NCBI GenBank assembly: GCA_041658125.1
Contig: JBBAAS010000001.1
Span: 15,917 to 79,916, forward strand
Length of the DNA: 64,000 bases
Origin: Candidatus Shapirobacteria bacterium
Lineage (GTDB): Bacteria; Patescibacteriota; Microgenomatia; UBA12405
Direction of reading: 5' to 3'
The position numbers and the translations under genes are program-made. This document shows, in pieces, positions 8,583 through 31,354 of the stretch. Each line of letters opens with the position of its first letter. Positions within the stretch are counted from its first letter, which is position 1. Below the pieces are notes generated by a model. That model was not told where the DNA came from. It was given only the letters and a program-made list of their open reading frames with translations, and did no database searches.

Positions 8583-9176
8583 TTATTGAAATAACATAGG
8601 TCGGCCAAGGACATAAGCAGGATTTTTGAGTTGTCGGTCAGAGATTTTTTTAGCGGGAACGCCTCCCCAAACTTCAAAATCGGGGATATCTTTGGTAACC
8701 ACAGCGCCGGCGGCGACGACCGCTCCCCTACCGATAGTGACTCCGGGAAGAATAATGGCTCGGGGGCCGATAAAAACATAGTCTTTGATAATTACCGGAC
8801 CAAAGGAATTGCCAAAATCAGGAGAATTAATATTGTGCTCATCGTTGTAAATCAAAACTTGGCTGGCGATATTGACATGGCTGCCAATTTCCAAGGGAGA
8901 GCGGCCGTCCAAAAAACAATGGTCACCGATAATGGAATCATGGCCGATTGTTAAGTTTTTTGGATTAAAAAAATTAGCCCACATATGAATAGTAGAGTTA
9001 AAAGGTATTTTAATGCCCGAGATAAGGTAAAAAATCTTTCTGATGGTATGGATGGGAATATAGCCTACCCAACGTAGGATCATTAGCCAAAGTTCTAAAA
9101 AGATAGTGTCAATACGGTTAGAAACTTTGTAAAGAATATTATCTGAAGTTAATGTTTGACCGTTTTTATCCTTCAT
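8583..9176 (-). CDS. Hexapeptide-repeat (LbH) sugar O-acetyltransferase, WcaF/NodL-like
   Basis: 197 aa. Tandem hexapeptide repeats [15 protein letters not shown] ... [41 protein letters not shown]. Confidence 0.75.
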
Positions 9177-15886: not shown

Positions 15887-17278
15887 AACCAGATAAAAAT
15901 TGTTCTGACAGGGAAAGGTTCTGACGGTTTGATGCGAGCCCAAAAGACTTAATTCATAGTAGTTGGTATTTTGATCAAAGGTACTTTGGTCAACGACAAC
16001 GGTCATGTACTCCGCTTGGCCATTTTGAGTTTCGATATCTTTAATATTACAACCGGCTTTTTTGAGGAGAAAACGATGTTCGGGTCCGTTATGAAACGGG
16101 TGGAGGCTTGATTGAACGGAGACGAAAGTTGGTTCCTTAAATGAGTCGCAGTAGTTTCTGAAACATTGTTCCATTTGGGTGGTAGTGCGGGAGGCGGTCG
16201 TAAAATATTGCTTTAGCCTGGTTGGTTGTAGATAATTTAAACTAAAAAATACAAGGCTTAGAACGGTAACAAGAGGCCGAAGACCGGCAATAATCACGAA
16301 AAGTAGTGAGGTAAAGGCGAAAATATAATGGGCTTGAATAGTGATTGGGGTAACAAAGGCCAGTATGGTGATACCTAAATACAGAAAAGAGGCGACGAAT
16401 TGTAAATTTTTCCTTTTTTGTCTATTTTTATAGAGTAAAAAAAGACAGAGTAAAATGCTGGCGATAAAGAGGGAAATATTCAGTGTTTGATTGGAGAAAG
16501 AGAAAACGTATTGTGACAGATTATTCAGACGATCGACGAAAGCCAAGTCTTTTTGAGGAGGTGAGTTTTTGGTCAAGAGAGCGGTGGTAAGAAAAAAGCG
16601 ATGACGAAGTTCAAAAAAAATCGTTGGTAGATTAATTAAGGCCAGAGCGCCAAAGAGTGATAAGGCTATCGCTTTAAAATTGGAACGAGAAAATAAAAGC
16701 CAATATAAGGCAAAAATAATTAGAAGTGGGGCGACGGAATAAGAAATGGAGATGGCGGTGGCAATACCGGCAGAAAAAAGGATAGTTTTTGGGATCGAGA
16801 ATTTTTTTAATAAAAGATAAAAAGAAATAATGGAGATAATCAAGAATGGGGTGACAAATGATGGATTCCAAACGTAACGACCTTGAATAATGTATTGGGG
16901 ATGAATGGAGATGAAGAAAAAAGCGATCAATAAAACCTTGGTTAAAGGCTTATCTTTTCTTAGTAAATAAAGACCTAAGAGAAAAGAAAAAAGATAGATA
17001 AAAGCGAGAGTATAAACCAAAGAAATCGGGTTACCTTTAGAAAGGAGAAAGCCGGGGTAAAGTAGATAAAAATAAATAGCAGATTGGTTAAAGGGGAGAG
17101 CGCTAGTTTGGGGGCCGAGGAGTGGTGGTTTGCCTGTTTCTTGCCAAGTTTGTAGTACCATCATGTCCCGACCCATATCGTTGAAAAAGAAAAAAGAGTC
17201 GTTAATATTGTAGAAGCGGAGGAAAAGGAACAAAAATATTACGCCGATAATCGGTAATAAACGAAGGATTTTAGACAT
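15863..17278 (-). CDS. Polytopic membrane protein with C-terminal soluble domain, possible GT-C-like glycosyltransferase
   Basis: 471 aa. ~10 TM helices followed by a ~110-aa hydrophilic, Cys-containing C-terminal domain. The start codon shares one nucleotide with the stop of the AbiEii gene (TAATG). Confidence 0.4.
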   Translation of the reverse strand: MSKILRLLPIIGVIFLFLFLRFYNINDSFFFFNDMGRDMMVLQTWQETGKPPLLGPQTSALPFNQSAIYFYLLYPGFLLSKGNPISLVYTLAFIYLFSFLLGLYLLRKDKPLTKVLLIAFFFISIHPQYIIQGRYVWNPSFVTPFLIISIISFYLLLKKFSIPKTILFSAGIATAISISYSVAPLLIIFALYWLLFSRSNFKAIALSLFGALALINLPTIFFELRHRFFLTTALLTKNSPPQKDLAFVDRLNNLSQYVFSFSNQTLNISLFIASILLCLFLLYKNRQKRKNLQFVASFLYLGITILAFVTPITIQAHYIFAFTSLLFVIIAGLRPLVTVLSLVFFSLNYLQPTRLKQYFTTASRTTTQMEQCFRNYCDSFKEPTFVSVQSSLHPFHNGPEHRFLLKKAGCNIKDIETQNGQAEYMTVVVDQSTFDQNTNYYELSLLGSHQTVRTFPCQNNFYLVLIRKTIP

Positions 17279-18012
17279 TAGGTTAGCCTGGCAATTTCAT
17301 TATCTAAAAACATAAGAGTTTCCTCTTTTAGGGTTTTTCTGATTTTGTTATAAGTTTCAAACGGTAAAAGAGTATTTAAGTCCTGATCAATTAGGGTTTG
17401 AGTAATTTTTTCGTTTATAAAATGACGAAGGTAAACAAGATATCTTTTAACCGATAGTCCGGTTCTTTCAATTATTACGGCTTCACTGTATTTCAAATTT
17501 TTTAGAAAGAAGTAATGAATATCGTAGATATCCCGGCCGGCAATCGATTCTCTACGATCATACCGATCTTTGACGGCTACCATTTTGTTGGCAAAAATGC
17601 TTTTCTGGTCTTGACAGTTGACGGTACGGTTAATTTCCGGCAAAAATACCGGAGAATATCGGTTGGATTTGACGATAACATTAAGAGCGTCAATTTTTAA
17701 AGTGTTTCTTTGATTTGGGGAGTTAGGATATTTCAAAAAAAACTCTAAAGCTTTTTGGCTTTCCTGATATAAAATAAATCCAAGTTTGTCAAAAACTTTA
17801 TGAAACTCCGCTCTTAACTCTTTTTCATTTACCCCAGTCTTAAGGTCAAAATCAAGATCAACTGAAAACCGATCAAGAATGCCCATCATTGAGGCGCAGG
17901 TACCGCCCTTGAAATATAAAGAGTTTGATAAGGTAGAGTTATCGATGATTTCGGTTAGAGTGCGAAGTAGGTGAGCTTTATGAATGGTGTCGGTAGGTCT
18001 TAGGGTGATCAT
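17278..18012 (-). CDS. abiEii: AbiEii/DUF1814 nucleotidyltransferase toxin (type IV toxin-antitoxin)
   Basis: 244 aa. YFKGGTCASMMGILDRFSVDLDFD matches the AbiEii (DUF1814) GGTAL...RFSEDLDF core. Sits immediately downstream of, and overlapping (ATGA), an AbiEi-like gene. Confidence 0.65.
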   Translation of the reverse strand: MITLRPTDTIHKAHLLRTLTEIIDNSTLSNSLYFKGGTCASMMGILDRFSVDLDFDLKTGVNEKELRAEFHKVFDKLGFILYQESQKALEFFLKYPNSPNQRNTLKIDALNVIVKSNRYSPVFLPEINRTVNCQDQKSIFANKMVAVKDRYDRRESIAGRDIYDIHYFFLKNLKYSEAVIIERTGLSVKRYLVYLRHFINEKITQTLIDQDLNTLLPFETYNKIRKTLKEETLMFLDNEIARLT

Positions 18013-18551
18013 AAATAGCCAAGTTGTTGTTGATAATTCTTAACTAAAGTCCAGTCAATAACATTGTCGGCGTCAAAATGATAATTTTTTTGAAAATATA
18101 ACATATCGGCAATTGCCCGCTCGGTATTGGCCAAGAAAACACCTCTGTCGTTTTGAGTTATGCCAAGAGAATTGTTTAAACATTGAGGTTTTAACTGTCT
18201 GACTAAATAGGCATGGTCGTTAATGTTAAAGTTGGCGGGAGTACTGGAAATAAAAGTTATTTTTGCAGGCGATTGGTTAATAATCCCCTCTTTTGCTAAA
18301 ACCGATTCGGTACTTAAATAGCTAAAGTGATTTATGGCCCTAAAGCCTATTTCTACCGGATCCAGTTGACTTAACGGAATGGTGCTATAGAGTCCCTTTT
18401 GAACACTGATCAGTATCTCTTTTTTGATCAGTCGAGCAATGGTTTTATAGAGTGTGTTTTGATTCGAAATATTCCAGAGAACTTTTAAGTCTGAAGTGTG
18501 GAATAATTTTTGTGGTTGTTGGATTAATATACCGATTTTGTCTACAGTCAT
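18009..18551 (-). CDS. abiEi: AbiEi-family antitoxin/transcriptional regulator
   Basis: 180 aa. LISVQKGLYS ... SYLSTESVLAKEGII resembles the AbiEi N-terminal domain (rGvY ... sYiSleSAL). 4-bp overlap with the toxin gene. Confidence 0.6.
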   Translation of the reverse strand: MTVDKIGILIQQPQKLFHTSDLKVLWNISNQNTLYKTIARLIKKEILISVQKGLYSTIPLSQLDPVEIGFRAINHFSYLSTESVLAKEGIINQSPAKITFISSTPANFNINDHAYLVRQLKPQCLNNSLGITQNDRGVFLANTERAIADMLYFQKNYHFDADNVIDWTLVKNYQQQLGYL

Positions 18552-18703: not shown

Positions 18704-19984
18704 ATGATAATTTTGAAAAAGGTAGCAGTAATTGGATTAGGATATGTAGGATTGCCGACGTTGGTGGCTATTCATAAAACCGGTAAATACCAAGTAGTGG
18801 GTTTTGATATTGATAAAAAAAAGATAAAGAATATGAAAAATGGGATATCCCCGATTGAAGATGAGAATGTTGTTAAGGCGATAAGGAAAAAATCTCTTTT
18901 GGTTACAGATGATGAAAACGATTTGCGTGATAGCGATGTTTTCTTAATATGTGTGCCGACGCCGGTTTTTTCAGACTATTCCCCTGATTACGGTCCGGTG
19001 GAATCAGCGACAAAAGTTTGTGCGAAATACTTAAAGAAAGGTTGTCACTTTGTTTTGGAATCAACGGTAAATCCGGGGACTTGTGAAGAGATAGTAAAGC
19101 CAATTTTAGAGAGTGTAAGTGGTTTGACGGCGGGGAAAGATTTTAATGTTGCCCATTGTCCCGAAAGAATAAATCCCGGCGACAAAAAGTGGAATATATA
19201 TAACATTAACCGAAACATAGGGTCTATTAATAGCGAATGGAATGGAATTATCGCTGATTTTTATAGAAGTTTTGTCACTGATGCCAAAATTAACGAAGTG
19301 AGTTGTTTGAAAGTAGCAGAGTCGACAAAAATTGTGGAAAATACTTTTAGGGATATTAACATTGCTTATGTTAATGAATTGGCACAATCGTTTGACGCGA
19401 TGGACATTGATTTGCATGAGACTTTAATGGCGGCCTCAAACAAACCCTTTGCTTTTATGGTTCATTGGCCGGGTTGTGGAGTCGGTGGACATTGTATTGC
19501 GGTGGATCCTTATTACTTGATAAAGAGGGCGGGGTTAGCCGGTTTTAATCATCGGTTTTTAAAGATTGCTCGGGAGATTAATAATAGTATGCCGGAGTAT
19601 GCGGTGAACAAATTGATGCTGGGATTAAATGAAATGGGATTATCGGTTAAGGGAACAAAAATTACTCTTTTGGGATTAAGTTATAAGGCAAACGTTGGTG
19701 ACTTAAGGGAAAGTCCGGCGTTGGAAATTGAAAAATGTTTACGGAAGCTTGGGGCCGATTTAATTGTTTATGATCCGTATGTCGATAATGGGATAAAAAA
19801 TTTAAGAGAAGCAATAAAAGATTCAAAAGCAATCGTATTGGCAACTGCACACAAAATATTTGTTGAAGAGTTGTTGGATAAATTAAAAAATAGTAAGGTA
19901 AGATTAATTATTGATGGAAGAAACTGTTTAGACAGCGGTAAAATTAAAAAATTAAAAATAATTTATAAAGGAATTGGAAGATGA
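18704..19984 (+). CDS. Nucleotide-sugar dehydrogenase (UDP-glucose/GDP-mannose dehydrogenase family; WecC/WbpA/Ugd-like)
   Basis: 426 aa. VAVIGLGYVGLPTLVAI NAD-binding motif, ICVPTP, catalytic-Cys region GCGVGGHCIAVDPYYL. Confidence 0.85.
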   Translation: MIILKKVAVIGLGYVGLPTLVAIHKTGKYQVVGFDIDKKKIKNMKNGISPIEDENVVKAIRKKSLLVTDDENDLRDSDVFLICVPTPVFSDYSPDYGPVESATKVCAKYLKKGCHFVLESTVNPGTCEEIVKPILESVSGLTAGKDFNVAHCPERINPGDKKWNIYNINRNIGSINSEWNGIIADFYRSFVTDAKINEVSCLKVAESTKIVENTFRDINIAYVNELAQSFDAMDIDLHETLMAASNKPFAFMVHWPGCGVGGHCIAVDPYYLIKRAGLAGFNHRFLKIAREINNSMPEYAVNKLMLGLNEMGLSVKGTKITLLGLSYKANVGDLRESPALEIEKCLRKLGADLIVYDPYVDNGIKNLREAIKDSKAIVLATAHKIFVEELLDKLKNSKVRLIIDGRNCLDSGKIKKLKIIYKGIGR

Positions 19985-20034: not shown

Positions 20035-21306
20035 TCAATAGCTTTTACTAACTATAAAAACATAATTAGTTGTAGCTGAACCGCCAATATTTAACATCAT
20101 GGAATTATTGGTATTTTTGACTTGGTAACTACCTGCAGTATTTGTAATTTGTTTATGTAAATCTAGCAACATTCTGACTCCGGTAGCTCCGACTGGATGG
20201 CCACATCCGATTAGTCCTCCGCTAGGATTAATTGGATTTTTACCATTAAATTTAATTGAGCCGTTTTCAACGGCCTCATACTCCTTGCCGGGTTTGGTTA
20301 TACCAAAAGCAGAGATAGCGGCATATTCGCTGGAAGTGAAACAATCATGAGTCTCATATAAATCAATGTCATTTTCTTTAAGGTTGGACCGTTTTAGAGC
20401 ATCCAAGACAGTTTGTCTTGTCCAGGGTAATACAAAAGCTTGATCTTGTGATTCTTTTATTTTTTCGGAAAATTGGACAGGGGCAACCCGATGTCCCCAA
20501 CCGATTATTTCAGAAAAATTTTTATTGGTTAAGTTTCTTTTGGTTTTGTAATTTTGTAAATATTTTTTAGAGGATAAAATTACAACTGCAGCGCCATCAG
20601 TAACTTGAGAACAGTCGGCAACGGCAAGTTTACCGCCGACCAACATATTATTTTTAGTATTGCGATTATTGGCATGTTCTTTATTCATGAACCAACTTCT
20701 TGTTTGAGCATTTGGATTATTTTTAGCATTACTGTAATTAATTGCTGAAATCTCGGCTAAACAATCCAAATATTTTTTTTCATCTAAGGAATATTTTTTT
20801 ATGTAAATATCAGCTAATTGACCAAAAAGTTTTGGAAAGGGAAAAGAAATACCTTTAGCCTCTTTATCGTAGTAAGCGGCGGTTCCTAAATAATCTCCAC
20901 AGAGGGCTGAATTGACAGTTTTCATTAATTCAATACCCAAAACTATAGCGACATCGTAATCCCCTGCCCTTATCTTTGAAGAAGCGGAATCGATGGCGAC
21001 TGAACCAGAGGCACAAGCGGCTTCATATCTGGCACTGGGGATGCCATAAAAAGAAGGATTAATTTCGGTAAAAAAAGCACCTAAATGGCCTTGGTTGAAG
21101 TATTGTTCACCATCGAAGTTACCAACAAAGAGACCAATTTTATTTTGTTTATTGAGGGAGAAAATTTCTTTATAGTCCAAGTTGGTATTTAGAAGAGTAT
21201 CTTCAACCACTTCCCGCATCATTGCTAAAAAAGTTTTGCCTTCTTTAACCCAATTTCTTTGAAAGTCTGTTTGAGAACCACCAATTATATAGACGGGGTT
21301 TTTCAT
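20035..21306 (-). CDS. Thiolase (acetyl-CoA C-acetyltransferase, SCP-x/archaeal-type thiolase superfamily)
   Basis: 423 aa. Nucleophile-Cys region [17 protein letters not shown]-terminal [17 protein letters not shown]. Confidence 0.75.
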
Positions 21307-21307
21307 A

Positions 21308-22603
21308 TTAGTTTGCTTTTATATAATTGCGAAAATCTAATTCGTTTTGTAGAGTATAAAATTTTGTTTTTTCAGAGTGTTGTGCGATTTCTTCTGGAAC
21401 TGATAGTTTATATTGTTTAATTAATTTAATTGCTTCTTTTTTGCCGCCTATTAGGTCAATTAAAGCACATGGCGGCAACCAGTTAAATCCATAAGCCATT
21501 ACCCTATCAAGATCCTCTTTATTTTTTACAACCGGTCTTATTAAAGATAGGGAATAACTAATATATCGGGCGAAAAAATATTTAATAATTTCTGATTCAA
21601 AAGTTTTAGTTTTTAACAGTAGTTCAAAAGCTTTGTTGTATTCTCCATTTGAGATTTTTTCTTTAACTTGATCGATAAATTCAATATTAAATTTTGGAAT
21701 TGGTTCATATATTTTTTTATTGATATTAAAAACTAATCTTTGATCACCTTCTTTTTTATAAAAACCTTGCCCACATTTATCACCTAAAGAATTATTTGAA
21801 ATTAAATATTCAACAAATTCAGGCATTTTATATGATTCATGGGCATAGTCGTTGGTTAGATTATAAATATTATTTACGATTGCTTTATGAACATCGAGGC
21901 CGACAAGATCAATGGTAGCGATTGGCGGTAAGCTTCGACCGGTAAACCCCCCTAATAATTTGTCCATAAGAGCAATTCCTCCTTCTTTTTGGTATTTTTG
22001 GGCAAACTGAAGGGTTTCATTAAGTAGCTGGAATCCGATTCTATTGCCAGCAAATCCTGGAGTGTCGTTAACAATAACAACTTTACGGTGTAAAGTTGTT
22101 TGTAAATAATCGAATAGTTCTTTTTGAATTTCGGGATCAGAATTCGGCCCGGCAATTAATTCACAAAGGATCATTTTGTATGGTGGGTTATAGAAATGGG
22201 TGCCGAAATAATGTCTTTGTTGGGTGGGAGTGAAACATTTTGATAATTCGGTAATGGAAAGACCGGAAGAAACGGTAGAGATAATGGTATTGTTTTTGGT
22301 TAATAAAGATATCTTGTGGTTTATTTGTTTTTTGAGTTCTAGATCTTCGGACGTAAGTTCGAAAACCCAATCACTTTCAGACAGACATTCTTTTAGATCA
22401 TCGTAAGTTTTAGGAATAAGTTGATCTTTAATAACATCAGATTTGATGGAGTCAACGGCGATATCAATTCCCTCTTGAGCTTTTTCTAAAGAACGGGCGA
22501 TCATAAATATTTTGGCATTGCCGAAACCAGCGATAATACCAGCGCAATGAGAGCCCATAGCACCGTTGGCGCCGAGAATAGTGACGGTTTTAATCAGAAT
22601 CAT
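21308..22603 (-). CDS. 3-hydroxyacyl-CoA dehydrogenase (NAD-binding 3HCDH family)
   Basis: 431 aa. [23 protein letters not shown]-terminal Rossmann fold and a 3HCDH-like middle region. Immediately upstream of the thiolase with a 1-bp gap. Confidence 0.7.
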
Positions 22604-22610
22604 TTGATTT

Positions 22611-23429
22611 TTATATTTTGGGAAAATGGTAATACTGTTTGAAAGAAGTGGTAGGAAAATCTTTGAGAATAGTTTTCAGTTTATTCAATGTTCTATTGAT
22701 ATTGTAATAGTGAATAAAATATTCTTTGGGTGGTAATTTTATTCTTGGCTGGAGAAGATCAATTTCCCGGGGATGAATATAAAAGATTACCGGTTGTTTT
22801 TGTTGATTTATTTTATGGGTAAAATATTTTATAAAGATAGAAGGGAAACAACGCAAATAAAAACCACCAGAAAATGGAATCCTTTTACGGAAGATTTGAT
22901 AGGTAGAAGGAGGAATTTCTAATATGCCCCCGATAGTACTTTGAAATTGGTCGGCATGATTATCTCCGTAAAGAAAAGTTTTAAAAGGGAAGATACTAGA
23001 TGAATATTTGAAACCATAATTTTTTAAAGTTTGCCAAAACCAGGGAGTTCGATTCTGATCAACGGACCATGCTGGAGCACGATAGCCAATTATTTTTTGG
23101 TGAGTTAAGTTCTCAAGAATATCTTTTGATTCTTTTACATCGTTTTCAAATTGTTTTTGGCTCATGTTGTAAATAAAGTTATGATGGAGTGTGTGACAAG
23201 CAATTTCATGTCCCTGTTTAAAAATTTCTTTGATTAGCTGTGGGTGTTTTTGGGCAATCTCACCGACGACAAAAAAGGTACCAAAATTATTGCTTTGTTT
23301 AAGCAATTTTAATATTTTTTCAGTTGGATCTAAAATTCTGAAGTCGTTGGTTTTTATGGATCGCCCTTCTGGTGAGGAATGATACCAGTCCTCTAGATCT
23401 ACAGAAAAGATATTTGTATACTGCTTCAT
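22611..23429 (-). CDS. Polysaccharide deacetylase (CE4), PEP-CTERM-locus-type
   Basis: 272 aa. IFSVDLEDWYHS N-terminus, HEIACHTLHH metal-binding His motif. Confidence 0.7.
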   Translation of the reverse strand: MKQYTNIFSVDLEDWYHSSPEGRSIKTNDFRILDPTEKILKLLKQSNNFGTFFVVGEIAQKHPQLIKEIFKQGHEIACHTLHHNFIYNMSQKQFENDVKESKDILENLTHQKIIGYRAPAWSVDQNRTPWFWQTLKNYGFKYSSSIFPFKTFLYGDNHADQFQSTIGGILEIPPSTYQIFRKRIPFSGGFYLRCFPSIFIKYFTHKINQQKQPVIFYIHPREIDLLQPRIKLPPKEYFIHYYNINRTLNKLKTILKDFPTTSFKQYYHFPKI

Positions 23430-23490
23430 TGAGCTTTAGATAGGTATGTGATAAATTATTTCAAGCATTTTTAAGCTTTATTGATGGAAT

Positions 23491-24567
23491 ATGATAACAA
23501 ATAATAAATTTTCGTGGTGTGTTGGCGATTACCAGAGAAAGTATAAAAAAAGTATATTGGGACTATTTAAAAAGGAATATCCAGAATCAGTACTTTGGAA
23601 AGATGAATTTTTTGAGTGGCAACATTTTAAAAATCCGGCTGGAGAATCAATAATTAAACTGGCGATAAATACCAAAGAAGAAGTGGTGGGTTTTTATTGT
23701 GTTTTATTGCAGGATTATTTTATCAACAGAAAACTGTTTCACGGATCAATTTCTTTGAGTACGTTGGTTCGAGAGGATTATAGGGGTATGGGTATTTTTA
23801 CAATATTAGCTCAGGAATGTTACAAAGAGTGTTTTAAAAGAGGTGTCAAGTTTACTTTAGGTTTTCCGAATCAAAATTCATACCCCGGTTTTATTAGAAA
23901 ATTGGGGTTCTTAAATTTGGGTGAATTACCGCTTCTCATAAAACCTTATAGATTGAGTAATTTGGTAGCAGAGAAGCTAAATAGTGGGGTGATGGGGATG
24001 ATGGTGCGGCCAATTGATTTTCTAATAAATTTATTTAATAAAGATAGTTGCTGTGGATTGAGTGAGGATATGACCGATTCATTTCATGATTTGTTTTGGA
24101 GAAAGGCAAGAAAAAAATACCAGATAGTAGCAAATCGGGATGCAAGATTTATTGATTGGAGAACAAAATGGCCAGAAAGAAAATATAAATATTTTTGTGT
24201 CAAAAAAAATAACAAGATTGAAGGATACATAATACTTGGATTATTGGGAACAAAGAATGTAAAAAACGGTTTAATTGTGGATTTTGTGGTTAATGATTCA
24301 TCTGACGCCCAAAGTATTGGAAATGATCTACTGAAGGAAACTAATCATTACTGGAAAATGGAAAATGTTGATCAAGCAGGTTGTTTAATATCGAAAAATT
24401 CCTTTGAATTTAAGTTGTTGAGGAAAAACGGTTATTTTATTTGCCCAAATTTTTTAAAACCTCAACCAATGGTGGCTGTCTTTAAATGGCACGGAAATGA
24501 TTGTCCCTTAGAAGTGTCTGATCTTCAAAAATGGTATATTACCACGATTGATTATGATGTGGCGTAA
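23491..24567 (+). CDS. FemAB-related / BioF2-like (Acetyltransf_6) GNAT-fold acyltransferase
   Basis: 358 aa. Region VVGFYCVLLQDY ... LVREDYRGMGIFTILAQE ... KFTLGFPNQNSYPGF resembles FemAB-like N-acyltransferases found in exopolysaccharide loci. Confidence 0.55.
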   Translation: MITNNKFSWCVGDYQRKYKKSILGLFKKEYPESVLWKDEFFEWQHFKNPAGESIIKLAINTKEEVVGFYCVLLQDYFINRKLFHGSISLSTLVREDYRGMGIFTILAQECYKECFKRGVKFTLGFPNQNSYPGFIRKLGFLNLGELPLLIKPYRLSNLVAEKLNSGVMGMMVRPIDFLINLFNKDSCCGLSEDMTDSFHDLFWRKARKKYQIVANRDARFIDWRTKWPERKYKYFCVKKNNKIEGYIILGLLGTKNVKNGLIVDFVVNDSSDAQSIGNDLLKETNHYWKMENVDQAGCLISKNSFEFKLLRKNGYFICPNFLKPQPMVAVFKWHGNDCPLEVSDLQKWYITTIDYDVA

Positions 24568-24584: not shown

Positions 24585-26057
24585 ATGAAAGTGCTTTTAG
24601 TTACACCCCCATTTTATAGAATTCTGGGGATTTACAATCGGTATTTTCCATTAGGAATTACTCAATTGGGTACTGTTTTAAAAGATAAAGGATATAAAGT
24701 AGCAGTTTATGATGCTGATTATTATTCTGATCCGGACACGATTGATTATTCGCGTATCTCAGATAAGTTTCCCACTTATTTAAAATCTTTTAAAGAAAAG
24801 AACCAAATTTGGAGTGAAGTAATTGAAAACATAAAAAAATGGAAACCAGACGTAGTCGGAATATCCGCTTATACCACTTTTGCTGCTTCGGCTTTTCATT
24901 TAGCAAAATTAGTAAAGGAAAATATTGAAAACTGCAAGGTGATAATGGGTGGACCACATGCGACTGTCAGAGCTGAGGAAATTTTAGAAATTTGTCCTGA
25001 GGTAGATTATGTGGTCAGGGGTGAGGCAGAAGAGACAATGATTGAACTAATGAACCATGTTACTGGAAGGAAAAATGACGTAGAGAGTATTTCGGGAGTG
25101 TCTTTTAGAAAAGGGAAAAAGATTGTCTCGAATGGAGACAGATTGCAACCTAAAAATCTAGATAATTACCCTATGTTGAATAGATCTTTATTGATGAATA
25201 AAAATAAGTTATCATCGGAAGATATGGGTTTAATTATGACTAGCAGAGGTTGTCCGTATAGGTGTACATATTGTGCTTCAACAAAAGGAATTAGATATCG
25301 ATCGATAGGTAGTGTTATGGAGGAAGTCGAGGCTGTTTTTGAGAAATATGGGACGAGACAATTTACTTTTAAAGACGACTCTTTTACTGTAGACAGAAGC
25401 CGAGTGGTTGATTTGTGTAACCGTTTAATACAATGGAAGGTTAAAATAAATTGGGAATGTAACACGAGAGTTAATTTGGTAGATGAAGAACTACTGCGCT
25501 TGATGAAGAAGGCTGGGTGTAATTTTGTTAAAGTGGGAGTCGAGACTGGATCAGCTAGGGTACTTAAAATGATGAATAAGGGAATTAGTTTGGATCAGGT
25601 AAGGTCAGCATCAAAATTGTTTAGAAAGGTTGGATTACACTGGACTGGGTATTTTATGATGGGAGTGGTGGGGGAAACAGAGAAGGATATTCAGAAAACT
25701 GTGGATTTTATGCACGAAATAAAGCCAAACTTGGGTGTTATCGCGGTTTACGAGGCTTTTCCGGGAACTGTAATGTTTGAGGAAGGTTTAAAAAAAAGGT
25801 TGTATAGAGAAAATATGAGCTTGGAAGATTTTTATTCCATGGCTCCAGATAGTTATTATAAGGTTGATCCGAGAGTACAAAATGAAAAAATAACCCCGAA
25901 GAGATTTGAAATTATAAAAAAAGAAGTTAATAAAGAATTTCATCAACAAAACATGATGGTAGGAAATGTGATGGCGATGGCCAGGTCTAAAATAAGAGTT
26001 TATTACAGGGATCCAAAGATATTTTTTGATGATGTAAAAAAGATGTTAAGCTATTGA
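24585..26057 (+). CDS. Cobalamin-binding (class B) radical SAM enzyme
   Basis: 490 aa. N-terminal B12-binding-like Rossmann domain (KVLLVTPPFYRI ... GYKVAVYDAD), radical SAM cluster motif SRGCPYRCTYCAS (CX3CX2C). Confidence 0.8.
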   Translation: MKVLLVTPPFYRILGIYNRYFPLGITQLGTVLKDKGYKVAVYDADYYSDPDTIDYSRISDKFPTYLKSFKEKNQIWSEVIENIKKWKPDVVGISAYTTFAASAFHLAKLVKENIENCKVIMGGPHATVRAEEILEICPEVDYVVRGEAEETMIELMNHVTGRKNDVESISGVSFRKGKKIVSNGDRLQPKNLDNYPMLNRSLLMNKNKLSSEDMGLIMTSRGCPYRCTYCASTKGIRYRSIGSVMEEVEAVFEKYGTRQFTFKDDSFTVDRSRVVDLCNRLIQWKVKINWECNTRVNLVDEELLRLMKKAGCNFVKVGVETGSARVLKMMNKGISLDQVRSASKLFRKVGLHWTGYFMMGVVGETEKDIQKTVDFMHEIKPNLGVIAVYEAFPGTVMFEEGLKKRLYRENMSLEDFYSMAPDSYYKVDPRVQNEKITPKRFEIIKKEVNKEFHQQNMMVGNVMAMARSKIRVYYRDPKIFFDDVKKMLSY

Positions 26058-26058
26058 T

Positions 26059-26790
26059 ATGATTTTTAGAAAAGTTTTGATCTTGATACCGGCGTACAAT
26101 GAAGAGGCAAATATTGCGACTACTATAGCGAATATAAAAAAATTTACGAAAGGGAAAGGCTGGGATATTTTAGTTGTAGATGATGGGTCAAAAGATAAAA
26201 CATATTTAAAAGCAAAAAAGTGTGAGGTTATTGTAGTTCGCCATCCTTTTAATATGGGGTATGGGGTAGCAATACAAACCGGTTATAAGTTTGCTATTGA
26301 TGGAGGATATGACATACTGGTTCAAATTGATGCAGATGGTCAGCATGATCCCAAATATATTCCTAAGATGATCAATACATTACGAAGGGAGAAATTGGAT
26401 GTGGTCATTGGATCAAGATTTCGAAAAAAAACTGATTATCATGCGCCTTTTATGAGAAGATTGGGGATGATACTGTTTAGTTTGATTGTCAGTGCTGTAA
26501 CTCGTAGAAAAGTTACTGATTCGACGTCCGGCTATCAGGTTATTGATAAAAAAGTGTTGAATTTCTTGTCATCTGATTCTTTTCCTTGTGATTATCCGGA
26601 CGCTGACCTGTTAATTATGTTATATTTTGCCGGATTTAAAGTGGATGAAATACCCATGAAAATGTATGAAAATAAAACAGGAAAATCAATGCATGGTAGT
26701 CTCATCAAAAATTTCTATTATGTAATGAAAATGTCTTTATCGATTTTAACGATTGTTCTTAGAAAAGTTACAGGTTTACCAAGTTTTTAA
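26059..26790 (+). CDS. Glycosyltransferase family 2, DPM1/GtrB/ArnC-like polyprenyl-phosphate sugar synthase
   Basis: 243 aa. VLILIPAYNEEANIATTIANI ... DILVVDDGSKDKT ... VQIDADGQHDP (DxD), small soluble GT-A typical of Dpm1/GtrB. Confidence 0.8.
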   Translation: MIFRKVLILIPAYNEEANIATTIANIKKFTKGKGWDILVVDDGSKDKTYLKAKKCEVIVVRHPFNMGYGVAIQTGYKFAIDGGYDILVQIDADGQHDPKYIPKMINTLRREKLDVVIGSRFRKKTDYHAPFMRRLGMILFSLIVSAVTRRKVTDSTSGYQVIDKKVLNFLSSDSFPCDYPDADLLIMLYFAGFKVDEIPMKMYENKTGKSMHGSLIKNFYYVMKMSLSILTIVLRKVTGLPSF

Positions 26791-26792
26791 AT

Positions 26793-27143
26793 ATGCCACT
26801 GGTACAAAAACTATTTTTCTATATTGTAGCCATGTTTTTATTGATGTTAATACTTAACTTAGTGAGAAAGCGAAAGTTGAGAGAAAATTATAGCTTATTG
26901 TGGATTTTCATATCTTTGGTGTTGATATTAATAGTTTTACTTTATCCTTGGTTGGTAAAATTTTCTAACTTATTTTTGGCTAATCCGACATCAATGATAA
27001 TGTTTTGTGGTATGGTAGCTTTATTATTATTAATATTACAGTTATGTTTAATGAATTCAGTTCAGGCGACACAGATAAAAAATTTAGTGCAAAAAATTAC
27101 TCTTTTAGAAGAAAAGGTTAAAAATGTATCTAAGAAAAAGTGA
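26793..27143 (+). CDS. Small 2-3 TM membrane protein (DUF2304-like; GtrA-position partner of DPM1-like GT2)
   Basis: 116 aa. Hydrophobic helices, conserved-looking LNLVRKRKLRENYSLLWI, C-terminal coiled coil. Starts 3 bp after the GT2 stop. Confidence 0.5.
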   Translation: MPLVQKLFFYIVAMFLLMLILNLVRKRKLRENYSLLWIFISLVLILIVLLYPWLVKFSNLFLANPTSMIMFCGMVALLLLILQLCLMNSVQATQIKNLVQKITLLEEKVKNVSKKK

Positions 27144-27191: not shown

Positions 27192-28637
27192 ATGGATAAT
27201 AAAAATAATAATAGAGTTTATTTACTTTATCCTCCTATTTCAAAGAAAGAAAGATACTCGTCGGATTTGGGTAGTGCGGGAGGAGAACAAATTCCCTTGG
27301 GAATTTTTTGTTTGGCTGCTTATTTAAGAGAAAAAGGGTATGAAATGGCGGTTACTGATGGAGAGTCTGAAAAATTAACGACAAAACAAATAACAAGACA
27401 AATTAAAAAATTTGATCCATTTGTAGTTGGAATAAGTTCGACTACGGTTGCTTTTCACAGGGCGTTGGAAATGGCGAAATTAATAAAGAAAAAGTTTCCT
27501 AAAGTAATAATTTTAATTGGGGGTCCTCACGTAACATCAAATTATAAGGATGCTTTATCATTTGGTGTATTTGATTATGGTGTTTTAAGGGAAGGTGAAA
27601 TCACAACAGTTGAATTGTTAAAGACCATAAAGGGCAAGGGTAAAATTGAAGAAGTAAAAGGAATAGCTTATAAAAAAGATGGAAAAGTTATTGTTAATGA
27701 ACCCAGAGAGTACATTAAAAACTTAGATGAATTGCCGTTTCCCGCATATGATTTGATTGAGGATATAAATTTATATACACCTGATTTGTCAAATTATATG
27801 TCAACGCCGGTGGTTAATATTATGACAAGTCGCGGTTGTCCGAATCAGTGTACTTTTTGTGATAGAGCTGTATTTGGTCAGTTTTATAGAGAAATGTCGG
27901 CAGAAAGAGTAGTAGAATTAATAAAATATTTAGTGGAAAGATATAAAGTTCGAGAGATCGATTTTGTTGATGATACTTTCTTGATTAATAAATTACGATT
28001 TAAAAAAATCTTTCGATTACTAAAGGAAGAAGGAATTAAATTTTACTGGACATGTACAAGTAGAGTTAACGTTGTCGATTACGAGATTTTGAAATTGGCT
28101 AAAGAAACCGGTTGTTGGCACATTGCTTTTGGAATTGAGTCGGGTGACGAGGGTATTTTGAAACTGATTAAAAAGAATATTACTATGGAACAAGTGAGAA
28201 AGGCGTTGGGATGGTGTAAAGAACTTGGGATTAAGAGTAAGGGTTACTTTATTGTAGGCCATCCAGGCGATACTTTGGAAACAATAAATAAAACAATTAA
28301 ATTGGCTTATAACTTGCCTTTAGATGATATATTAGTAACCATAAATACGCCAATTCCGGGGTCACCCCAATATTATTTTATTAAGGAATATGGGGATTTT
28401 GATGAGTCTGATTGGTCTAAATTCAATTGTTGGAGGCCGGTGTTTATTCCTAAGGGATTAACGAAAGAAATACTTTTGAAAAAACAAAGGGAAATGTATC
28501 GAAAGTTTTATGTAAGGCCAAGAATTATATGGCGATATTTAAGGGGTACCTTGGGTCGAGGTGGGATGAAGAGGTTAAAATCATTAATGGGAGCGGCTAA
28601 ATATCTGATGTCTAAACCGAACCTGGAGGGTTTATAA
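27192..28637 (+). CDS. Cobalamin-binding (class B) radical SAM enzyme
   Basis: 481 aa. B12-binding-like N-domain (GYEMAVTDGE ... VVGISSTT ... ILIGGPH), cluster motif SRGCPNQCTFCD. Confidence 0.8.
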   Translation: MDNKNNNRVYLLYPPISKKERYSSDLGSAGGEQIPLGIFCLAAYLREKGYEMAVTDGESEKLTTKQITRQIKKFDPFVVGISSTTVAFHRALEMAKLIKKKFPKVIILIGGPHVTSNYKDALSFGVFDYGVLREGEITTVELLKTIKGKGKIEEVKGIAYKKDGKVIVNEPREYIKNLDELPFPAYDLIEDINLYTPDLSNYMSTPVVNIMTSRGCPNQCTFCDRAVFGQFYREMSAERVVELIKYLVERYKVREIDFVDDTFLINKLRFKKIFRLLKEEGIKFYWTCTSRVNVVDYEILKLAKETGCWHIAFGIESGDEGILKLIKKNITMEQVRKALGWCKELGIKSKGYFIVGHPGDTLETINKTIKLAYNLPLDDILVTINTPIPGSPQYYFIKEYGDFDESDWSKFNCWRPVFIPKGLTKEILLKKQREMYRKFYVRPRIIWRYLRGTLGRGGMKRLKSLMGAAKYLMSKPNLEGL

Positions 28638-28649
28638 CCGTAAGTTTAT

Positions 28650-30554
28650 ATGAATTTAGGTATTTATTTAGTTCCAATTGTATTTTTTTTGAAGCTTGGT
28701 TTAGTTGCGTTGGTATTTAGCCTTCCTTTAATTATTGATAGATTAAAGAAAAATCTTTCCGTAGACTTAATCTTAGTTTATTTATTTGGTCAAGCAAATT
28801 TAATATTATCGATTTTTATATACAATAGTATTAATTATTTTTGGGATATCAGAAAAATAAGCATTGTTGTTTTTTCTATTGTAGTTTTGGTTGTGGAGTC
28901 AATACTTGTGTTTATTCTTAATAAGAAAGAGTATCTTGCCGAGAAAAAAAGGTTTGTTTTTGGAGATAATTGGAAGTGGTTTATCATCATTTTTATGATA
29001 GTTACAATTTTTTATGGATGGATAAATTCTTTATATTTTGACCGGCAAGAGAATAAAATATTTAATCCAGGGTATGGGATAAACCATGATTATATTGTTG
29101 TTTTGGGAACGTCAAAGGCGTTTTTTAAATATACTAAGGATAGTAGCCTTTTGATAAGGGATTTGTATTATCATTGTTATGAAGCGGGTTATCCGTGTGG
29201 CGGAACACATATAAGTGCTTATTTCTCAGATTTATTTAAAACAGATGTTTACCTTGTTTACCAACGGATTCTAACTTGGTTGTCTGTGTCGACAATATTT
29301 GTGATTAATTATTTTCTTGTGAAATTTTTTCGGAAGGGAAATTTACTTTCCAATATAGTATTAATTTTGGTCTCAGTTGCCAGCGTATTTAATTTTTTGT
29401 CAATGAGTTTCATAGATGCATCAGTTTTTGGTTCCACTGCAGTAATACCCTTTTTATTTTTATCCATATTTCTGACATTACAGTATATTAAAGAAAAGAA
29501 AAATATATACCTATTGCTAATTTTTATAGTTTTGGTAGACATGGTTTATATTTATACCTATTTTGGTGGTATTTATTATTTATTATTTTTGGCGACGGCT
29601 CTCATAATTTATCGGAGAAAATTTTGGGAAGGCTGGAAAATGGTGAAAATAATTGCTTTACTTTTAATAGCATTTATTTTACCTCTAAATCTGCTTCCAG
29701 CAATAAAATTTTTAACAAAACAAGTTGAGTCTCCAGTGAAGGAGGTAAGCTTGTTTAAAGGGATGAATGGTAATATGGCCGGTTTTAATAATCCGATGAC
29801 TGCTTTTTCAATATGGACATCAAACGCAGATTATAGGTTCTATGAAGCAAATTATTATAATACATGGTTGTTTTTTACATTAATGGCACCGATTATCTTT
29901 TTTTTGTTGGTCTCAGAAAAAGATAAAATTATGCTTAATAAAGAAATATTAGTGATCGCATTACCTTTTGCGATAATGATTGGAGTTGGTTTTTGGATAA
30001 CCAAGTCTTCTTATCAAAGTGGGAAGGCTTTACATTGGTGGTCTGATATCTGGCCTTTAATTTTTTATTTATTGCTTTATAAATCACTTTTAGATAAAAG
30101 GATTGTAATAAGATTATTAGTATTTTCATACTGTTTGATATTTTTTTACTACTCTTTTAAGAGTGCTGTTTTTGCTAGTTCATATTTTGGTAAACCGATT
30201 GTGAAGAGTAATTATGAACTTATGAATTTGGAGCCTGAATTATGTAAAGATGACAGTAAACTTTTATTTTTAGGTAGAGATGAGATGTCTAAATATTTTT
30301 TAGATACCTGTAAAAACATAACTTTTTATTATGACAGGTTTGATAATAATGCCGCTTTCTGGGAGATTATAGCATTAAATAAACTTATTAGTTTGGATCA
30401 GAAATGTGAAAATAATAGTTTGAGTTTAACGAAGATTGATTATAGTAGTTATAATGAAGTGTTAGTTGATAAGTGTTTTAAATTTAATAATCCATCGTAT
30501 GTAATTGAAAAAGAATATGAAAACTACAACTTATGGAAACTTAAAAGCTTATGA
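28650..30554 (+). CDS. Large polytopic membrane protein, possible GT-C-type transferase (GtrC position)
   Basis: 634 aa. >12 predicted TM helices plus a C-terminal soluble domain. No family motif recognised by eye. Confidence 0.35.
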   Translation: MNLGIYLVPIVFFLKLGLVALVFSLPLIIDRLKKNLSVDLILVYLFGQANLILSIFIYNSINYFWDIRKISIVVFSIVVLVVESILVFILNKKEYLAEKKRFVFGDNWKWFIIIFMIVTIFYGWINSLYFDRQENKIFNPGYGINHDYIVVLGTSKAFFKYTKDSSLLIRDLYYHCYEAGYPCGGTHISAYFSDLFKTDVYLVYQRILTWLSVSTIFVINYFLVKFFRKGNLLSNIVLILVSVASVFNFLSMSFIDASVFGSTAVIPFLFLSIFLTLQYIKEKKNIYLLLIFIVLVDMVYIYTYFGGIYYLLFLATALIIYRRKFWEGWKMVKIIALLLIAFILPLNLLPAIKFLTKQVESPVKEVSLFKGMNGNMAGFNNPMTAFSIWTSNADYRFYEANYYNTWLFFTLMAPIIFFLLVSEKDKIMLNKEILVIALPFAIMIGVGFWITKSSYQSGKALHWWSDIWPLIFYLLLYKSLLDKRIVIRLLVFSYCLIFFYYSFKSAVFASSYFGKPIVKSNYELMNLEPELCKDDSKLLFLGRDEMSKYFLDTCKNITFYYDRFDNNAAFWEIIALNKLISLDQKCENNSLSLTKIDYSSYNEVLVDKCFKFNNPSYVIEKEYENYNLWKLKSL

Positions 30555-31354
30555 TTTCAATACCATTTCTTTCTAAGAAAGCCAGTATTCCTTTTCCCCC
30601 TTTGGGTATGAGGGAGCTAGTTGGACCAATCAATACCAGCGATTTTGATAACCCTGAAGGGAAATTAATCTACCCTTATTTTAAAGCGAAAGATTATAAA
30701 AAAGTTTTTGATTTTGGGTGTGGTTGCGGGCGGTTGGCTAGGCAATTACTTATGCAAGAGCCTGTTCCTAATAAATATACGGGAATTGATCTCCATCTAG
30801 GGATGATCAATTGGTGTATCACTAACTTGTCACCCTGTAATAAAAATTTTAAATTTATCCATTACGATGTTTATTATAAAGCCTTTAACCCTACCGGCTC
30901 ATCAAAATTGTTACCTTTTCCGGTTGAACACAATCAATATACTCTAGCTCTTGCGCACTCTGTTTTTACTCATCTGATTGAAAAGGAAGTCGACTTTTAT
31001 TTAACAGAAATTACTAATGTCTTATGTGACCATGGGGTCTTTTTTGCCAGTTGGTTTCTTTTTGAAAAAAAATATTTTCCGATGATGCAGGAATTTCAAA
31101 ATTCTCTTTATATTAACCTAGATGATCCTACTAACGCTGTTATTTATGACAAAAATTGGCTTTTAGATATCTATTCTAAACACGGTTTATCTATCGAGAT
31201 TATTAAACCTCCCGGTGCTCGAGGTTTCCAATGGGTTGTTGTTGCCCGTAAGATTAATAGAAAACACCAGACGATTTTCCCTCAAGACGATGCCCCTATC
31301 GGTATAGTCCGAGCGTCATTACTTAAAAAAGAACCCTACAAAATTGGTTTATAG
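30551..31354 (+). CDS. Class I SAM-dependent methyltransferase
   Basis: 267 aa. Motif I VFDFGCGCGRLARQLL. 4-bp overlap with the upstream gene. Confidence 0.7.
   Translation: MISIPFLSKKASIPFPPLGMRELVGPINTSDFDNPEGKLIYPYFKAKDYKKVFDFGCGCGRLARQLLMQEPVPNKYTGIDLHLGMINWCITNLSPCNKNFKFIHYDVYYKAFNPTGSSKLLPFPVEHNQYTLALAHSVFTHLIEKEVDFYLTEITNVLCDHGVFFASWFLFEKKYFPMMQEFQNSLYINLDDPTNAVIYDKNWLLDIYSKHGLSIEIIKPPGARGFQWVVVARKINRKHQTIFPQDDAPIGIVRASLLKKEPYKIGL

Follow-up and report, generated by a model that had tools for sequence, protein, structure and literature searches.

The closest functional precedent for the locus described here is the viosamine island of P. syringae, which encodes the KAS-III enzyme VioS, the ketoreductase VioR, an acyl carrier protein (ACP), the aminotransferase VioA and the left-handed beta-helix (LbH) N-acyltransferase VioB, and whose product is N-(3-hydroxy-1-oxobutyl)viosamine on flagellin (PMC3927599). 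The anthrose operon antABCD of Bacillus anthracis is also documented (PMC10050317). Acyl-donor genes dedicated to glycan islands are already known, as are sugars carrying N-(3-hydroxybutanoyl) groups. In the anthrose pathway, AntA is reportedly an enoyl-CoA hydratase leading to 3-hydroxy-3-methylbutyryl-CoA, and AntD an LbH N-acyltransferase (work attributed to Dong et al. 2008/2010 and Kubiak & Holden 2012). Here we analyzed a stretch of 64,000 nucleotides (the window) from Candidatus Shapirobacteria bacterium (assembly GCA_041658125.1, contig JBBAAS010000001.1, positions 15,917 to 79,916), in which genes for a thiolase and a 3-hydroxyacyl-CoA dehydrogenase (HADH) lie beside those for a CE4-type deacetylase and an acyltransferase of the GNAT fold. 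We propose, with a probability of roughly 65%, that these genes form a glycan-tailoring module and do not serve beta-oxidation, 3-hydroxybutyryl-CoA being the donor for N-acylation of an amino sugar. We are somewhat surer of the core of this proposal, the supply of the donor together with deacetylation and re-acylation of the sugar.

N-(3-hydroxybutanoyl) amino sugars, on which a first-pass annotation of the same DNA had relied, are indeed established in bacterial glycans, in both R and S configuration (PMC9676051, PMC3726653). An (S) example is QuiNAc4N(S-3Hb) in Acinetobacter (PMC9676051), and Fuc3N and Qui3N also carry N-(3-hydroxybutanoyl) groups; the published gene sets for Fuc3N(3Hb) contain only sugar-pathway genes and the transferase (PMC3726653). 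Our literature search on thiolase in 3-hydroxybutanoyl glycan clusters returned nothing relevant. To our knowledge, Pse/Leg 7-N-(3Hb) clusters likewise encode no donor-supply enzymes. Bacteria of the candidate phyla radiation (CPR, or Patescibacteria) are usually described as being without fatty-acid metabolism, and thiolase and HADH genes in their metagenome-assembled genomes tend to be read as fragments of beta-oxidation or fermentation. Beta-oxidation was unreported in the CPR before one exceptional Parcubacterium that carries a full, co-located set (PMC5220378).

The core of the module consists of the following features:

20035..21306, minus strand: SCP2-type (HDCF-loop) thiolase, 423 aa, with Thiolase_N and Thiolase_C_1 domains (NCBIfam NF004936)
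21308..22603, minus strand: long 3-hydroxyacyl-CoA dehydrogenase (HADH), 431 aa, with 3HCDH_N (96 bits) and 3HCDH (52 bits) domains
22611..23429, minus strand: CE4 + DUF3473 de-N-acetylase, 272 aa, with Polysacc_deac_1 (77 bits) and DUF3473 (120 bits) domains
23430..23490, no strand: divergent intergenic spacer of 61 nt between the CE4 and GNAT genes, read from the sequence
23491..24567, plus strand: tandem-GNAT acyl-CoA-dependent N-acyltransferase, 358 aa, recognized by its tandem-GNAT fold and CoA-binding motif

The four open reading frames (ORFs) lie where the first-pass annotation had placed them, and on the minus strand 1 nt lies between the thiolase and HADH genes and 7 nt between the HADH and CE4 genes. 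Its family labels were borne out by Pfam and NCBIfam models for the thiolase, the HADH and the CE4 protein, but the fourth label, that of a FemAB/BioF2-like acyltransferase, had to be withdrawn, as no FemAB/Acetyltransf_6 hidden Markov model (HMM) matches and the structure is closer to N-myristoyltransferase (NMT) and Eis. The thiolase scores 593 bits, against a cutoff of 375 bits, on NF004936 (PRK06289), which is a generic 'acetyl-CoA acetyltransferase' model. Among solved structures it comes nearest to the SCP2-thiolase-like proteins of trypanosomatids (PDB 3zbg/4bi9, E 1e-51) and to acetoacetyl-CoA thiolases of archaea. Seven homologues from the CPR and Leptospira keep the nucleophile Cys, the HDCF loop, the GHP His and NIGGS; following an assignment attributed to Harijan et al. 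2013, we take these residues to act as the nucleophile, as an acid/base loop replacing the Cys of the C-terminal CxG and, for the His of G-H-P, as the catalytic histidine. Both HADH domains exceed their Pfam cutoffs, and the protein passes no NCBIfam cutoff. It matches residues 1-420 of FadN/Staph_FadB-type proteins and is missing their crotonase half, and alignment with homologues shows conserved GANGAMG (Rossmann), HFYNP...LCE (His/Glu dyad), SSGLS and GNRIG motifs. Its nearest relatives are found in Woesebacteria, Shapirobacteria and other Patescibacteria.

The motifs DLEDWYH and HEIACHTLHH, which the first-pass annotation had picked out in the CE4 protein, are present and conserved; VDLEDW, HEIACHTLHH, GYRAPAW and IHPRE are kept in six homologues. 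The CE4 family is defined by an Asp/His/His metal site and by MT1 (D-x-D/E-D), MT2 (H-[ST]-x-x-H), MT3 (R-x-P-[YFW]) and the His of MT5, and the protein has retained all of these metal-binding and catalytic motifs. On TIGR03006, the equivalog model of the XrtA-system deacetylase, the protein scores 241 bits, under the 276-bit cutoff. Prediction of transmembrane (TM) segments found none in the CE4 protein, which is therefore placed in the cytoplasm. A literature search on DUF3473 returned nothing relevant. The 61-nt spacer presumably holds two promoters; in a scan of 18.4-31.5 kb, consensus promoters and terminators were no more frequent than in shuffled controls.

The acyltransferase carries two GNAT domains in one chain, and the first has a nearly invariant CoA-binding motif, R98-x-x-G101. 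It can thereby be grouped with the tandem-GNAT N-acyltransferases of the NMT, Eis, MshD and GlcN N-acetyltransferase type, which use acyl-CoA, acylate amines and bind the CoA pyrophosphate through R/Q-x-x-G-x-G/A. This acyl-CoA tandem-GNAT fold and motif argue against a Fem-type peptide ligase, the identity that the first-pass annotation had named as contrary to CoA-dependent acyl transfer. A word-indexed protein search gave only 16 relatives and made the family look tiny, which exhaustive HMM searching overturned: with the profile there were 1,279 representatives at E<=1e-30 and 15,312 matches at E<=1e-3. Clustered at 50% identity, the family falls into more than 1,200 groups; its members are nearly all 345-395 aa long, and the ten members that we sampled are all unnamed proteins. 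It is thus a large tandem-GNAT family without a characterised member. A distant homologue (22% identity), unannotated in PLSDB, lies on the Sinorhizobium mexicanum megaplasmid NZ_CP041241.1 (1284633-1285364; locus L097), where it adjoins a hexapeptide transferase with a DegT aminotransferase nearby.

We consider the encoded enzymes probably competent because the thiolase, the HADH and the CE4 protein retain intact catalytic motifs and the acyltransferase has the fold and CoA motif of its family. In the proposed mechanism, the SCP2-type thiolase would condense two acetyl-CoA to acetoacetyl-CoA, and the HADH would reduce this with NAD(P)H to (S)-3-hydroxybutyryl-CoA, pulling the unfavourable condensation forward; the S configuration is assumed from the 3HCDH family. 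The GNAT protein is proposed to be the transferase of the 3-hydroxybutyryl group onto a de-acetylated amino sugar.

The surroundings of the module were characterized by scanning all ORFs of 110 aa or longer in the 64-kb window for domains with Pfam/NCBIfam models. The glycosyltransferase (GT) island that the first-pass annotation had recognized extends over the whole window, which is one large glycan island with GT1, GT2 and GT4 enzymes, PMT-like GT-C proteins, a Wzy_C protein, an ABC-2 exporter and many methyltransferases, together with six radical S-adenosylmethionine (SAM) proteins, of which five are B12-binding and one is of the SPASM type. Among these ORFs there is no enoyl-CoA hydratase (ECH), acyl-CoA dehydrogenase (ACAD), acyl-CoA ligase or ACP, and electron-transfer flavoprotein (ETF), PhaC and HMG-CoA synthase were likewise not found. 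Hence the thiolase and HADH have no ECH partner nearby, a finding that, like the lack of an NCBIfam assignment for the HADH, sits well with what the first-pass annotation had assumed. A beta-oxidation reading was rejected on the absence of ECH, ACAD and ligase from the scanned ORFs. A DegT-type sugar aminotransferase and FdtA were also not found in the window, so that no way of making a free sugar amine is encoded other than de-N-acetylation by the CE4 protein. A tRNA scan of the window found no genes, and there are no exosortase-related genes in it. A hexapeptide protein at 8583-9176 was set aside as an alternative acyltransferase because of its resemblance to maltose/galactoside O-acetyltransferases and its distance of 12 kb.

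We compared loci gathered by exact-protein look-ups, a genome scan and an alignment-based metagenome scan. The genome-contig scan with a single HADH gave only three loci, and the metagenome scan was far more productive. ORFs of these loci were labelled with a reference-protein panel, and the labels were checked by pooled Pfam scans. The comparison set holds 55 non-redundant HADH loci, mutually less than 90% identical, with W denoting the window locus; loci with an HADH at least 60% identical to that of the window were taken as the low-GC CPR clade. The HADH and thiolase genes are neighbours in nearly every locus of the set that extends far enough, and within the CPR clade an amino-sugar tailoring gene lies within two genes of the pair in all 12 loci with informative flanks. 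The partner is CE4 plus GNAT in W, L004, L012, L016, L022 and L023, and a hexapeptide acyltransferase, immediately upstream and divergent, in L008, L010, L011, L019, L021 and L024, where FdtA and a DegT aminotransferase often accompany it; in L002 it is DegT with a divergent LbH-like protein. The hexapeptide protein of L011, the one tested, is a homologue of QdtC (PDB 3fs8, E 1e-72). QdtC stands for the N-acyltransferases of dTDP-3-amino-3,6-dideoxyhexoses, a family with activity on Fuc3N and Qui3N as well. The two kinds of partner are intermixed within the CPR clade, and therefore the donor pair appears as the constant unit and the acyltransferase as the exchangeable one. The LbH-HADH-thiolase cassette recurs on distant HADH branches (L042, L063, L064, L080 and L087; 38-48% identity, GC 27-52%). 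When the neighbours were pooled, glycan-type loci (97 proteins) gave Hexapep 13, DegT 6, CE4 5, DUF3473 4, GNAT 4, FdtA 3 and ECH 0, and the other 37 loci (126 proteins), among them the Leptospira-like clade, had heterogeneous, mostly metabolic neighbours, with short-chain dehydrogenases/reductases (SDR) 6, alcohol dehydrogenases 4, E1 subunits of branched-chain ketoacid dehydrogenase (BCKDH) 3 and ECH 2. The N-(3-hydroxyacyl) sugar decoration put forward in the first-pass annotation is in this way backed by conserved modular neighbourhoods, as a reading of sequence and gene context.

Several proteins were observed next to the HADH-thiolase pair in these loci. A conserved 146-aa protein without Pfam match always follows the pair in Leptospira-like genomes (L005:10594-11034), has homologues in L034, L038, L040, L041, L055, L066 and L075, and is missing from the CPR glycan cassettes; it may be a third subunit or a partner of the Leptospira-like thiolase/HADH type. 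A 284-aa protein with a faint hexapeptide-repeat signal (Hexapep E 2e-4) is encoded at L002:7032-7886 (minus strand), in a DegT/GT2 group of a Woesebacteria genome two genes upstream of HADH-thiolase, and at L048:2682-3560 (plus strand), in an unrelated locus directly after HADH-thiolase, and is a candidate for a divergent LbH N-acyltransferase family. At L010:2946-3176 (plus strand), a 76-aa ORF without Pfam match directly follows the thiolase, and PMT-type GT-C proteins follow the cassette.

The GNAT gene, viewed from its own side, adjoins a CE4/DUF3473 gene in nine of nine non-redundant close loci. Six of these have HADH-thiolase on the CE4 operon, and it is in six non-redundant loci that the packed CE4-HADH-thiolase operon is directly divergent from GNAT. 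In L013 the order is thiolase - DUF362 - GNAT - CE4; this thiolase is of archaeal type (PRK06064, 434 bits against a 420-bit cutoff), and there is no HADH. In L096, which comes from an unrelated organism, an operon of CE4, a 270-aa Hbd-type HADH and GNAT lies in a GT4-rich cluster; the best model of this HADH is the 3-hydroxybutyryl-CoA dehydrogenase PRK05808 (277 bits), its gene overlaps that of GNAT by 11 nt, and the GNAT protein is 31% identical to that of the window. Three lineages of C4-CoA enzymes thus stand beside GNAT/CE4, which would be hard to explain unless GNAT is able to use their product. DUF362 proteins with a weak match to the NCBIfam model Npun_F2552 occur near tandem-GNAT/CE4 in two unrelated loci, between thiolase and GNAT in L013 (8685-10001) and two genes past the CE4-HADH-GNAT operon in L096 (10278-11249); they may be involved in acyl-chain tailoring or serve as redox partners.

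The module does not end with the GNAT gene. The boundaries given in the first-pass annotation, 20035-24567, enclose its core, but a plus-strand operon carries the module on to ~30.5 kb, with these features:

24585..26057, plus strand: B12-binding radical SAM enzyme #1, with B12-binding and Radical_SAM domains and no NCBIfam cutoff passed
26059..26790, plus strand: soluble PpgS/DPM1-like GT2, with a Glycos_transf_2 domain and PpgS as its best NCBIfam model
26793..27143, plus strand: DUF2304 small membrane protein (PF10066, 68 bits) with 3 TM segments
27192..28637, plus strand: B12-binding radical SAM enzyme #2, with B12-binding and Radical_SAM domains, syntenic in L004, L012 and L023
28650..30554, plus strand: 634-aa polytopic membrane protein, GT-C fold according to its predicted model
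30551..31354, plus strand: SAM-dependent methyltransferase (Methyltransf_25/12/11), which ends the operon and overlaps the GT-C gene by 4 nt

A soluble GT2 homologue of 223-254 aa lies within at most four genes of GNAT-CE4 in nine of nine loci, usually beside a protein with 3-4 TM segments (DUF2304) and with a 9-16-TM protein nearby; the DUF2304 gene itself adjoins that of the GT2 in the window, L004, L014 and L098. L098/L099 have the order 728-aa protein - GT2 - DUF2304-like - EamA - GNAT - CE4 - GtrC-like GT_STM0557_N protein, and EamA-like (ArnE-like, 4-TM) proteins of 114-115 aa are encoded in the sister loci L014, L015 and L098. The GT2 scores 124 bits on PpgS, a polyprenyl-P-GalNAc synthase, followed by dolichyl-P hexose transferase models and ArnC (48 bits). 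In mycobacteria and corynebacteria, PpgS (Rv3631), Rv3632 and Rv3779 form the arabinogalactan GalN pathway, in which polyprenyl-P-HexNAc, the product of a soluble GT2 and its small membrane partner, is de-N-acetylated and the sugar transferred by a GT-C enzyme to the wall polymer (PMC9671496, PMC3485146). Because the GT2, the small membrane protein and the large polytopic protein of the window parallel those of the PpgS pathway and of the Arn pathway of lipid A, we propose a lipid-linked acceptor, with the GT2 as polyprenyl-phosphate HexNAc synthase and the DUF2304 protein as its partner, as Rv3632 is for PpgS. The de-acetylated amino sugar favoured as acceptor in the first-pass annotation is retained; a finished glycan is not, since a lipid-linked sugar is likelier. 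That GNAT and CE4 act on polyprenyl-P-HexNAc at the cytoplasmic face, a point suggested by these analogies, is the least secure part of the model, and we put it at even odds.

In parallel with donor synthesis, the GT2, aided by its DUF2304 partner, would convert UDP-HexNAc to polyprenyl-P-HexNAc, the cytoplasmic CE4/DUF3473 protein would de-acetylate this to polyprenyl-P-HexN, and the tandem GNAT would use 3-hydroxybutyryl-CoA to form polyprenyl-P-HexN(3-hydroxybutanoyl). The B12-radical-SAM enzymes could C-methylate the acyl chain or the sugar; enzyme #1, which is syntenic in L004, L013 and L016, is a candidate for this role. The lipid-linked N-(3-hydroxybutanoyl)hexosamine would then be flipped, and the 634-aa protein, judging from its modelled GT-C fold, is proposed to take the modified sugar off its lipid carrier and attach it to a cell-surface acceptor. 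HMM and jackhmmer searches of all fetched loci found this protein conserved in sequence only in L004 besides the window, so the large membrane proteins of the other GNAT-CE4 loci are analogous in position and not demonstrably homologous. Whether the methyltransferase belongs to the module is uncertain; its GC skew (-0.04) is unlike that of its neighbours. Upstream, a gene convergent with the thiolase is a possible precursor-sugar enzyme of the module, although the link is weak:

18704..19984, plus strand: UDP-N-acetyl-hexosamine (ManNAc/GlcNAc) dehydrogenase-like protein (TIGR03026, 375 bits)

Homologues of this dehydrogenase recur near the cassette in L002, L010, L012, L021 and L096.

Several points weigh against the proposed function. 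Every step of it is deduced from sequence and from the arrangement of genes. Thiolases of the SCP2 type are known for the most part from degradative roles. For the HADH, the choice of cofactor is ambiguous, as the position after beta-2 reads ARS, ART or ARD across homologues, and a prediction of NADH or NADPH from this residue was dropped. The GT2 is far under the 370-bit PpgS cutoff, so that it shows a family resemblance and is no PpgS orthologue; the GT-C model of the 634-aa protein has a pLDDT of only 61; and the window has the DUF2304 protein only, with no EamA-type flippase of the ArnE/F or GtrA kind. The analysis covers 64 kb of the genome, and a crotonase, butyryl-CoA dehydrogenase or PhaC could lie elsewhere. 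Relatives of the HADH-thiolase pair at ~50% identity occur in non-glycan metabolic contexts, for example in Leptospira, which indicates that the pair is not intrinsically glycan-specific and was recruited repeatedly. GNAT-CE4 pairs in L014, L015 and L098 have no acyl-CoA supply genes, so a special donor is not obviously needed. Finally, the group transferred could be an acetoacetyl group, carry a methyl branch or have a longer chain.

The last point leads to the alternative that survives best, although we consider it unlikely: the donor cassette works as proposed and the acyl group differs, being an acetoacetyl group reduced after transfer, a methyl-branched hydroxyacyl or a longer 3-hydroxyacyl group. 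SCP2-type thiolases are generally known to take bulky or branched substrates, L013 has a thiolase without an HADH, and B12-radical-SAM genes are interleaved with the module, being present in six of six thiolase-bearing GNAT loci and in neither of the two complete loci without thiolase, an association based on just eight loci. An N-acetoacetyl intermediate is moreover invoked for the P. syringae viosamine pathway (PMC3927599). Against this, enzymes of the 3HCDH family use CoA thioesters, which makes reduction before transfer likelier, and CPR bacteria have few acyl-CoA sources beyond acetyl-CoA.

It is less likely still that the HADH-thiolase pair feeds another acceptor or transferase, for instance in O-acylation, while CE4 and GNAT independently use a common acyl-CoA. 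The GNAT-CE4 pairs lacking thiolase and HADH would fit this, the window also encodes an Acyl_transf_3 protein (14768-15886) besides the maltose-O-acetyltransferase-like LbH protein at 8583-9176, and O-linked 3-hydroxybutanoyl groups are present in rhizobial exopolysaccharide (EPS). These other acyltransferases, however, are 4-12 kb off and not syntenic with the cassette, the tightly spaced CE4-HADH-thiolase operon is directly divergent from GNAT in six non-redundant loci, and in L096 the HADH stands between CE4 and GNAT with overlapping genes.

We regard as very improbable a role of the pair in energy metabolism, whether as a remnant or a part of beta-oxidation, butyrate-type fermentation, polyhydroxybutyrate synthesis or mevalonate supply that happens to be located in a glycan island. 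Its closest non-CPR relatives, those of Leptospiraceae at ~52% identity, do stand in non-glycan contexts, some distant relatives are beside ECH, SDR or BCKDH genes, and the thiolase family includes archaeal mevalonate-pathway thiolases; but two enzymes alone make no net catabolic or fermentative pathway, the 64 kb supply none of the partners listed above (ECH, ACAD, ETF, ligase, PhaC, HMG-CoA synthase), and the tie to amino-sugar tailoring genes in 12 of 12 CPR-clade loci persists despite varying partners. A merely coincidental adjacency, for which small CPR genomes rich in glycan genes and a window made up entirely of them give a high prior chance of some glycan neighbour, is equally improbable, because the immediate neighbour is specifically an N-acyltransferase, deacetylase or aminotransferase and no random glycosyltransferase, because this holds across ~18 non-redundant loci with HADH identities of 38-92% and GC of 26-52%, and because L096 built an analogous trio from a different HADH lineage. 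The glycan-tailoring module with 3-hydroxybutyryl-CoA as donor is the reading that we prefer. A bolder version of it, which we offer tentatively and think doubtful as a whole, is that thiolase and HADH form a portable cassette of CPR and other uncultured bacteria that joins any amino-sugar N-acylation route, here a hitherto undescribed lipid-linked CE4/GNAT editing followed by radical SAM methylation, with branched, anthrose-like decorations as the result. If true, the type of deacetylase that is 'missing' from PpgS-like pathways might be sought in the DUF3473-type CE4 family, and branched hydroxyacyl decorations would sit on the surface of an episymbiotic bacterium.

The rest of the island offered further observations. 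The GC skew of the plus strand is strongly positive (0.2-0.4) across the window irrespective of gene direction and near 0 in a few genes, namely the thiolase (0.002), the HADH (0.10) and the methyltransferases at 30551-31354 and 45540-46328 (0.015 in the latter); such low values would fit cassettes that were acquired recently, the thiolase/HADH pair included. A gene pair at 17278-18551 (minus strand), within the island and immediately upstream of the gene for the UDP-sugar dehydrogenase, includes an AbiEii-type nucleotidyltransferase toxin (PF08843, 66 bits). A 180-aa ORF without Pfam match, presumably the AbiEi antitoxin, overlaps the toxin gene on its upstream side, and the skew of the pair (0.12-0.13, well under the ~0.36 of its neighbours) suggests a mobile insertion. 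A 909-aa protein (31391-34120, minus strand) has a DUF4214 domain at residues 429-482 and a glycosyltransferase domain of GT1 type at its C-terminus. It is followed by an FkbM-type methyltransferase gene (34117-35139) and the ABC-2 exporter pair, an arrangement suggesting that the island holds a second glycan pathway, one that depends on an ABC transporter. The other B12-binding radical SAM genes of the window are at 41498-43060, 43062-44522 and 50253-51722, and the SPASM radical SAM gene is at 46370-47539.

The analysis moves thiolase and HADH genes of the CPR from energy metabolism to the tailoring of cell-surface glycans, and it predicts that the envelope, through whose surface the organism attaches to its host, carries an (S)-3-hydroxybutanoyl-amido hexosamine. 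It also provides a first functional hypothesis for the tandem-GNAT family and its obligate CE4/DUF3473 partner, and points to a general extension of Arn/PpgS/Gtr-type systems in which a sugar is deacetylated and then re-acylated while on its lipid carrier.

Among the known systems, the PpgS pathway is matched in the window by a GT2 with PpgS as its best model, a DUF2304 partner and a GT-C-fold protein. The mycobacterial sugar remains free GalN, and the deacetylase of that pathway is still unidentified (PMC9671496), whereas the window has a CE4 protein in the module, and its GNAT and acyl-CoA supply suggest re-acylation. The Arn pathway of lipid A L-Ara4N (ArnC, a GT2; ArnD, a CE4 deformylase; ArnE/F; ArnT, a GT-C enzyme) has a parallel architecture but no re-acylation, the window lacks an EamA-type gene corresponding to ArnE/F, and its CE4 protein belongs to the DUF3473/TIGR03006 subfamily, with only 28 bits on the ArnD model. 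NodB/NodA and LpxC/LpxD share the logic of de-N-acetylating a GlcNAc unit and then N-acylating it with another acyl group, a 3-hydroxyacyl group in the case of LpxD; NodA and LpxD (LbH) differ from the window GNAT in fold, in their acyl-ACP donors and in their substrates. In PEP-CTERM/XrtA EPS loci, a TIGR03006 deacetylase stands beside a FemAB-like TIGR03019 protein. The window resembles these loci in having a DUF3473-type CE4 protein and a transferase with two GNAT domains in a polysaccharide locus, a likeness that probably prompted the FemAB-like label of the first-pass annotation, and differs in that there is no FemAB/Acetyltransf_6 match, the CE4 protein falls under the TIGR03006 cutoff and there is no exosortase system.

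The anthrose operon is similar in that an enzyme of a beta-oxidation family, encoded among sugar genes, provides the short hydroxyacyl-CoA with which an amino sugar is N-acylated. Unlike the window, it relies on a hydratase acting on a leucine-catabolism intermediate, has another donor and another acyltransferase fold, uses a dTDP-linked sugar and has no deacetylase. The viosamine island comes closest, with an island-encoded C2+C2 condensing enzyme and a 3-keto reductase that build the 3-hydroxybutanoyl group for an amino-sugar N-acyltransferase, and the LbH-HADH-thiolase cassettes of relatives (L011 and others) share this logic. It uses type II fatty-acid synthase (FAS-II)/ACP chemistry with an SDR reductase and an aminotransferase-derived amine on a dTDP sugar, in contrast to the CoA chemistry without ACP, the CE4-derived amine, the tandem GNAT and the probably lipid-linked substrate of the window. 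In comparison with these systems, what is new here is a CoA-type thiolase/HADH donor cassette that pairs in modular fashion with either a QdtC-type LbH protein or CE4 plus tandem GNAT, together with a probable lipid-linked route of deacetylation and re-acylation, and the occurrence of such a module in CPR bacteria.

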